Shown here one piece after another: positions 820 to 845 of a DNA stretch of 64,000 bases (the stretch's first letter is position 1; every line of letters starts with the position of its first letter). Position numbers and translations under genes: made by a program. Location of the stretch: the NCBI RefSeq assembly GCF_003991155.1, contig NZ_CP031293.1. One strand, given 5' to 3'. Source of the stretch: Escherichia coli (GTDB lineage: Bacteria > Pseudomonadota > Gammaproteobacteria > Enterobacterales > Enterobacteriaceae). The notes beneath the pieces are model-generated. The model was not told where the DNA came from and searched no databases. It saw only the letters and a list, made by a program, of their open reading frames with translations.

Positions 820-845
820 GTAATGGTTACTATAGTAAACATTAC
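820..845. promoter_or_regulatory. 26-bp near-perfect palindrome (gtaatggttactatagtaaacattac) just upstream of the toxin gene; candidate operator/promoter of the TA operon
   Basis: Read directly: 24 of 26 positions are self-complementary, it contains a tatagt -10-like hexamer, and it ends 15 bp before the ATG at 861 with aggatgg as a Shine-Dalgarno candidate. Confidence 0.45.

Follow-up and report, generated by a model that had tools for sequence, protein, structure and literature searches.

A palindrome over the promoter of a HigBA2-type toxin-antitoxin operon inserted between rimO and dgcI of Escherichia coli is probably its autoregulatory operator

What is the role of the near-perfect palindrome that lies just upstream of the toxin gene in the toxin-antitoxin (TA) cassette next to rimO in Escherichia coli? 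The stretch of DNA analysed here, referred to as the window, is 64 kb in length, and the palindrome, GTAATGGTTACTATAGTAAACATTAC, occupies its positions 820-845. A preliminary description of the locus had read this as the layout expected of an operator through which a TA operon represses itself. Judged from the sequence, from its conservation and by analogy with related systems, the palindrome is very probably the operator of a HigBA2-type type II TA operon that is autorepressed via its antitoxin.

The cassette, about 1 kb in size, is inserted between rimO, whose 3' end lies at 635, and dgcI; compared with E. coli strains in which the rimO-dgcI site is empty, it takes up approximately 642-1636. 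The empty-site strains carry a hairpin-containing spacer of ~41 bp in its place, and the right junction falls within the dgcI stop codon, which is TAA in those strains and TAG here. The full cassette is found in 1128 of 5426 complete E. coli genomes (~21%), O157:H7 EDL933 included; most E. coli lack it, and relative to those it is an insertion or a replacement. The ~170 bp from the rimO stop codon to the -35 hexamer, which include a hairpin at 645-682, have no counterpart in the other genera examined. At the other end, a second near-perfect 26-bp palindrome, TAGTACCCCTTGATTAAGGGGTACTA (1596-1621, 12/13), follows the antitoxin stop (1566) and precedes that of the convergent dgcI (1636). Its stem is GC-rich and no T-run is present, so that it may serve the cassette as a bidirectional terminator; in EDL933 one base of it is different from the window, at the mismatched central pair.

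The rimO-adjacent TA operon of the preliminary description was recovered as two plus-strand genes, a toxin gene at 861-1247 and a gene for a helix-turn-helix (HTH) antitoxin at 1237-1566. The 128-aa toxin matches PF06296 over its full length (Pfam E=4.2e-32, residues 1-124 aligned to profile positions 1-120 of 120) and is of the HigB2 type within the RelE/ParE superfamily; PF06296 is the HigB2 family, named for HigB2 of Vibrio cholerae (PMC11980606). A sequence search of the PDB with the toxin returned nothing at E<=1, and its family assignment therefore rests on Pfam. Family membership suggests that the toxin cleaves mRNA in a ribosome-dependent way and that the antitoxin neutralises it. The antitoxin ORF overlaps the toxin stop by 11 nt, and the toxin-first order also holds in the homologous loci. 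It encodes 109 aa, with a helical region at the N-terminal end and an HTH of the Cro/C1 type at the C-terminal end (HTH_3 at residues 53-94 in Pfam), and profile searches gave sub-threshold resemblance to the MqsA and NadS models. In an AlphaFold2 model of the antitoxin (pLDDT 87.6) the N-terminal region is predicted to be helical with high confidence. The best PDB fold matches of this model are V. cholerae HigA2 (5jaa, 8a0x and 5j9i), 8a0x being a HigB2-HigA2-operator complex, with MqsA (3gn5) next; the C-terminal domain superimposes on 5j9i, the HigA2 C-terminal domain, with a TM score of 0.82 and an rmsd of 1.2 A. The N-terminal region is, by analogy with HigA2, a putative toxin-binding region. 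With a PF06296 toxin encoded first and an antitoxin whose fold is best matched by HigA2, the operon belongs to the HigBA2 type.

The palindrome consists of two 13-nt arms (820-832 and 833-845) with no gap between them. A repeat finder counted 12 of 13 arm positions, i.e. 24 of 26 bases (92%), as complementary, the same count as had been given from inspection, and the lone mismatch is G826 against A839. The 64-kb window has four palindromes of at least 12/13 with a gap of 0 or 1, where first-order Markov shuffles lead one to expect 0.16. A promoter scan found TTGAAA (809-814), a 16-nt spacer and TATAGT (831-836), together matching the consensus hexamers at 10 of 12 positions, as the sole plus-strand promoter-like site 5' of the toxin gene. 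The -10 hexamer, nearly invariant among homologues, lies inside the palindrome at its centre, and 15 nt separate the palindrome from the toxin ATG at 861, which bears out both the overlap with tatagt and the spacing noted earlier. From the -10 position, transcription is predicted to start near 843, and a Shine-Dalgarno sequence, AAGGA (849-853), can be read 7 nt 5' of the ATG. The proposed operator layout also holds up, in that the site lies over the only promoter found for the operon, from its spacer through the -10 hexamer to the predicted start, and the symmetric blocks of the site are conserved. Within E. coli the promoter region was found in 1135 genomes, with at least 99% identity in 1132; in one lower-identity genome that was inspected, the sole change in the palindrome is G826C, at the already unpaired position in a non-conserved spacer.

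Conservation beyond E. coli shows which bases of the site are kept. A scan for antitoxin relatives with one genome per species gave 55 loci, mostly from Enterobacterales and in unrelated contexts, and with further loci the total came to 41 distinct operator-bearing loci, with toxin identity down to ~34%. Nearly all homologous loci have, in the same place, GTAA-N4-(T/G)ACTATAGT(A/C)-N4-TTAC, and 5' of the toxin start their similarity to the window starts only at the -35 hexamer. In 19 of the 41 loci a -35-like hexamer (at least 4/6) was found 16-18 nt upstream, against ~12% at random positions. When 30 distinct upstream regions were aligned on the motif, the information content was 1.0-1.9 bits in the outer GTAA and TTAC blocks, which occupy positions 10-13 counted from the dyad, and in ACTATAGT, which occupies positions 1-4. 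It was ~0.75 bits at position 5, where T/G and A/C stand, and 0-0.3 bits in the N4 spacers (at positions 7-9) and the flanks. Arm complementarity at positions 7-9 of this alignment is 30-50%, near chance, and pair counting over 27 sequences found four of the 13 symmetric positions unpaired in 10-18 of them. Specific bases are thus kept rather than pairing, which points to a symmetric protein-binding footprint and not to a hairpin. The likeness of ACTATAG to phage T7 and SP6 promoter cores was judged coincidental, the remaining specificity bases being absent.

It could be argued that this conservation reflects the promoter (the -10 and start region) and shared ancestry, that the symmetry is incidental and that no repressor is involved. 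The motif centre is indeed the -10 hexamer, all homologues come from one cassette, and part of the conservation of the central block is owed to RNA polymerase because the block coincides with that hexamer. Yet neither the GTAA block, which lies in the spacer, nor the TTAC block, at about +1 to +5, plays a part in sigma-70 recognition, and both retain 1.0-1.9 bits symmetrically, while the bases between the blocks and the flanks are randomised, indicating that divergence is saturated. Moreover, the AC before the hexamer mirrors the non-consensus G at hexamer position 5, keeping ACTATAGT palindromic, and hence the motif centre is constrained beyond the needs of RNA polymerase. Variants with a single unit, described below, retain a perfect sub-palindrome. 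We therefore consider an explanation from promoter and ancestry to be improbable.

If a protein binds the site, the distribution of the motif bears on which one. It occurs once per locus, always just 5' of the toxin gene and nowhere else in the 58 fetched loci (most of ~5 kb), and once in the 64-kb window even with three mismatches allowed. It has moved together with the TA genes to unrelated genomic surroundings, across Enterobacterales families and onto plasmids; the plasmid copies in Xenorhabdus, Providencia and Moellerella are GTAC...GTAC variants with the same layout. Two orphan antitoxins that have lost the toxin, L045 of Silvania confinis (~2440-2475) and L048 of Xenorhabdus khoisanae (~2455-2480), keep the full operator motif and promoter, with the motif 20-25 nt 5' of the antitoxin start; other orphan antitoxins are without it. 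A blind scan of metagenome contigs for the exact motif gave 75 matches, 29 of which are at the 5' end of a HigB2-like ORF, followed by the antitoxin in 27. About half of the other matches fall within long ORFs, chiefly those of low-GC contigs, which is what chance would produce, and the remaining non-ORF matches are intergenic with no recognisable neighbour. Only two matches were found in viral contigs, one inside a 739-aa ORF and the other with no TA genes nearby.

Operator type also tracks the antitoxin sequence clades, with either a TAC core or a GAC core with ccc/ggg flanks, a relation that is confounded by shared ancestry. Antitoxins with the recognition-helix residues ESKPN..AAL go with the GAC core and ccc/ggg flanks, and those with E(I/K)KPSGPAL or NMTKES go with the TAC core. 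Covariation of recognition helix and operator was considered and set aside, as it has exceptions (L028, L037 and L085) and is inseparable from phylogeny.

A regulator encoded by the host outside the cassette, for example LexA, might bind the site instead, and a non-canonical SOS box has been proposed for the IncC higBA promoter (PMC8265657). However, there is no CTG-N10-CAG at the site, and no LexA SOS box of the TACTG(TA)5CAGTA-like type was found within three mismatches anywhere in the 64-kb window. The motif accompanies the cassette across Enterobacterales families and plasmids and stays with orphan antitoxins, and the antitoxin is the only DNA-binding protein that is always with it. Control by a host protein is accordingly a very unlikely explanation, somewhat less credible than the one from promoter and ancestry.

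The palindrome might alternatively be a recombination or mobility site marking the end of a mobile cassette, as the cassette is an insertion and its cross-genus similarity begins at about the -35 hexamer, near the palindrome. This is less credible again, since the E. coli insertion junction is near 642, ~180 bp upstream of the palindrome, no recombinase travels with the cassette, and the site keeps a constant position with respect to the -10 hexamer and start codon rather than the junctions. The least credible possibility is that the 13-bp inverted repeat acts as a nucleic-acid structure (RNA hairpin, terminator, attenuator or DNA cruciform), given that its fold of -11 kcal/mol is no more stable than that of shuffled sequence (z = 0.34), that it has no T-run, terminator call or Rfam match, that bases and not pairing are conserved in the homologues as counted above, and that the operon's own transcript would lack the hairpin because the predicted start lies inside the right arm.

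We therefore return to the antitoxin as the probable ligand of the site. In the mechanism that we propose, a dimeric Cro/C1-type HTH antitoxin, alone or with the toxin, would bind the GTAA, (T)ACTATAGT(A) and TTAC blocks. Because these blocks reach from the promoter spacer across the -10 hexamer to the start site, the bound protein would exclude RNA polymerase and the operon would repress itself, and the promoter would open when the antitoxin is depleted. We infer the binding by the operon's own antitoxin, the repression, any effect of the toxin and the stoichiometry from the layout of the site and from relatives that have been characterized.

The closest of these is higBA2 of V. cholerae (PMC11006873; PDB 8a0w/8a0x), in which a HigA2 dimer uses helix alpha-3 to bind the operator, has a 24-bp footprint that begins past the -35 and takes in the -10, and acts as a repressor in vivo. 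As in the present operon, the PF06296 toxin gene is the upstream one, the antitoxin joins an N-terminal region that binds the toxin (putatively so here) to a C-terminal HTH dimer domain, and a single inverted-repeat operator (here by sequence layout) reaches from after the -35 over the -10. The two operators differ in sequence and design: that of V. cholerae is TGTACGC-N5-GCGTACA, with 7-bp repeats and a 5-bp spacer (19 bp), a sequence with no match within three mismatches near the promoter here, whereas the present site measures 26 bp and is made up of three conserved blocks set apart by N4 spacers that are not conserved. The base-contacting residues R68, E71, N72 and R77 of V. cholerae HigA2 align with E76, S79, K80 and E85 here, and all four differ, which is consistent with a different operator sequence. 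With operator and base-contacting residues both different, the binding geometry of V. cholerae HigA2 is not simply transferable. The higBA2 operon of Acinetobacter baumannii pAB120 shares the toxin family and gene order, and promoter-fusion data show that HigA2 represses the promoter there with HigB2 as a co-repressor (PMC5906591). The higBA operon of Proteus vulgaris Rts1 is likewise toxin-first with an HTH antitoxin, which binds inverted repeats over the promoter; unlike the present operon it has a HigB toxin of the PF05015/PF09907 type, another antitoxin architecture and other operator sequences (PMC12266136; PMC5906591).

A further likeness is to MqsRA, whose HTH domain is detectably homologous to that of the present antitoxin (TIGR03830 E=1.8e-12, below cutoff; fold match 3gn5). 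E. coli MqsA binds palindromes of the form ACCT-N3-AGGT, present in two copies in the mqsRA promoter (PDB 3o9x), and the GTAA-N3-TTAC halves of the present operator share this 4-N3-4 geometry and are likewise two at the promoter. Membership of the MqsRA family was rejected on scores of 47.1 bits against a cutoff of 61.8 for TIGR03830 and 20.6 against 30 for PF15731, with only the HTH part aligning. The N-terminal zinc-binding domain of MqsA is absent here, no zinc-binding CxxC being possible in an antitoxin with no Cys among its 109 aa, the toxin is not MqsR, and, unlike in mqsRA, the two units form one larger palindrome centred on the -10.

This raises the question of whether one dimer occupies the 26-bp site or two dimers occupy its two GTAA-N3-TTAC units, alternatives that we consider about equally likely. 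Each half of the operator is itself palindromic, GTAAtggTTAC at 820-830 and GTAAacaTTAC at 835-845 (the latter covering the predicted start), and each is a possible single-dimer unit. Loci L016/L017 and L051 have a perfect left unit only, next to the -10, L050 has the right unit only, and in L014 the operator centre is 3 bp shorter, bringing the two units 3 bp closer together. The palindromic halves, the single-unit loci, the L014 spacing and the MqsA-like 4-N3-4 geometry favour two dimers; one dimer is favoured because the closest structural relative places one dimer on one 19-bp site and because the inner arms are degenerate in the GAC-core clade. A more specific model, in which two adjacent 11-bp units each hold one antitoxin dimer in MqsA-like geometry, with the -10 clamped between them, and single units elsewhere serve as secondary targets, is tentative and in our view rather doubtful. 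If true, it would make candidate secondary targets of TGCGTAAGTATTACGCA at 29270-29286 or of the motif beside unrelated XRE genes in metagenomes, and the antitoxin of this accessory cassette might govern a regulon of small size or engage in cross-talk with further XRE regulators. GTAA-N3-TTAC occurs five times in the window against 0.59 expected, twice in the operator, twice inside ORFs and once at 29270-29286. The last site is an intergenic, perfect 7-N3-7 palindrome containing the unit, flanked by ORFs that we take from their translations to be ompX and rhtA, and could be a secondary antitoxin target or unrelated.

A literature search by gene neighbours and protein accessions found no study of the E. 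coli rimO-dgcI TA locus. An operator of this autoregulatory type is ordinary for the known kind of TA system and adds no new principle to TA regulation; for the present subfamily the literature searched holds no description of it. The analysis provides an operator consensus that can be put to the test, GTAA-N4-KACTATAGTM-N4-TTAC. It applies to a HigBA2 subfamily with a wide distribution in Enterobacterales: roughly one complete E. coli genome in five has a copy, that of EDL933 included, and conjugative plasmids of Morganellaceae carry others. Uses of the motif include annotating these promoters, finding orphan antitoxin regulators and designing reporter or derepression experiments.

Several minor observations were made along the way. 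Four of the metagenome matches (L067:5290-5315, L073:9036-9061, L071:777-802 and L098:2610-2635) adjoin other HTH_3 (XRE) genes on contigs without a HigB2-type toxin, and the motif is perfectly palindromic in L071 and L098, which hints at a wider group of XRE regulators using the same operator layout. Locus L004 (JAIJJM010000872.1) is a contig of 1.2 kb from the bin of a Collinsella sp. MAG; it matches the E. coli cassette almost completely (antitoxin 100%, toxin 99%) and is probably a binning contaminant. Loci L014 and L058 are two diverged copies of the TA family on one 953-kb replicon labelled as a plasmid of Pseudomonas sp. T1-3-2 (NZ_CP093281.1). Elsewhere in the window, a perfect 26-bp palindrome, CTGCATGGTTATGCATAACCATGCAG, lies at 30360-30385, just after the stop of an ORF that is presumably rhtA and upstream of one that is presumably dps, as read from the translations, and a 27-bp palindrome, CGAAGCCGGAAGAATATTCCGGCTTCG, with 12/13 complementarity and one central base, lies at 63808-63834.
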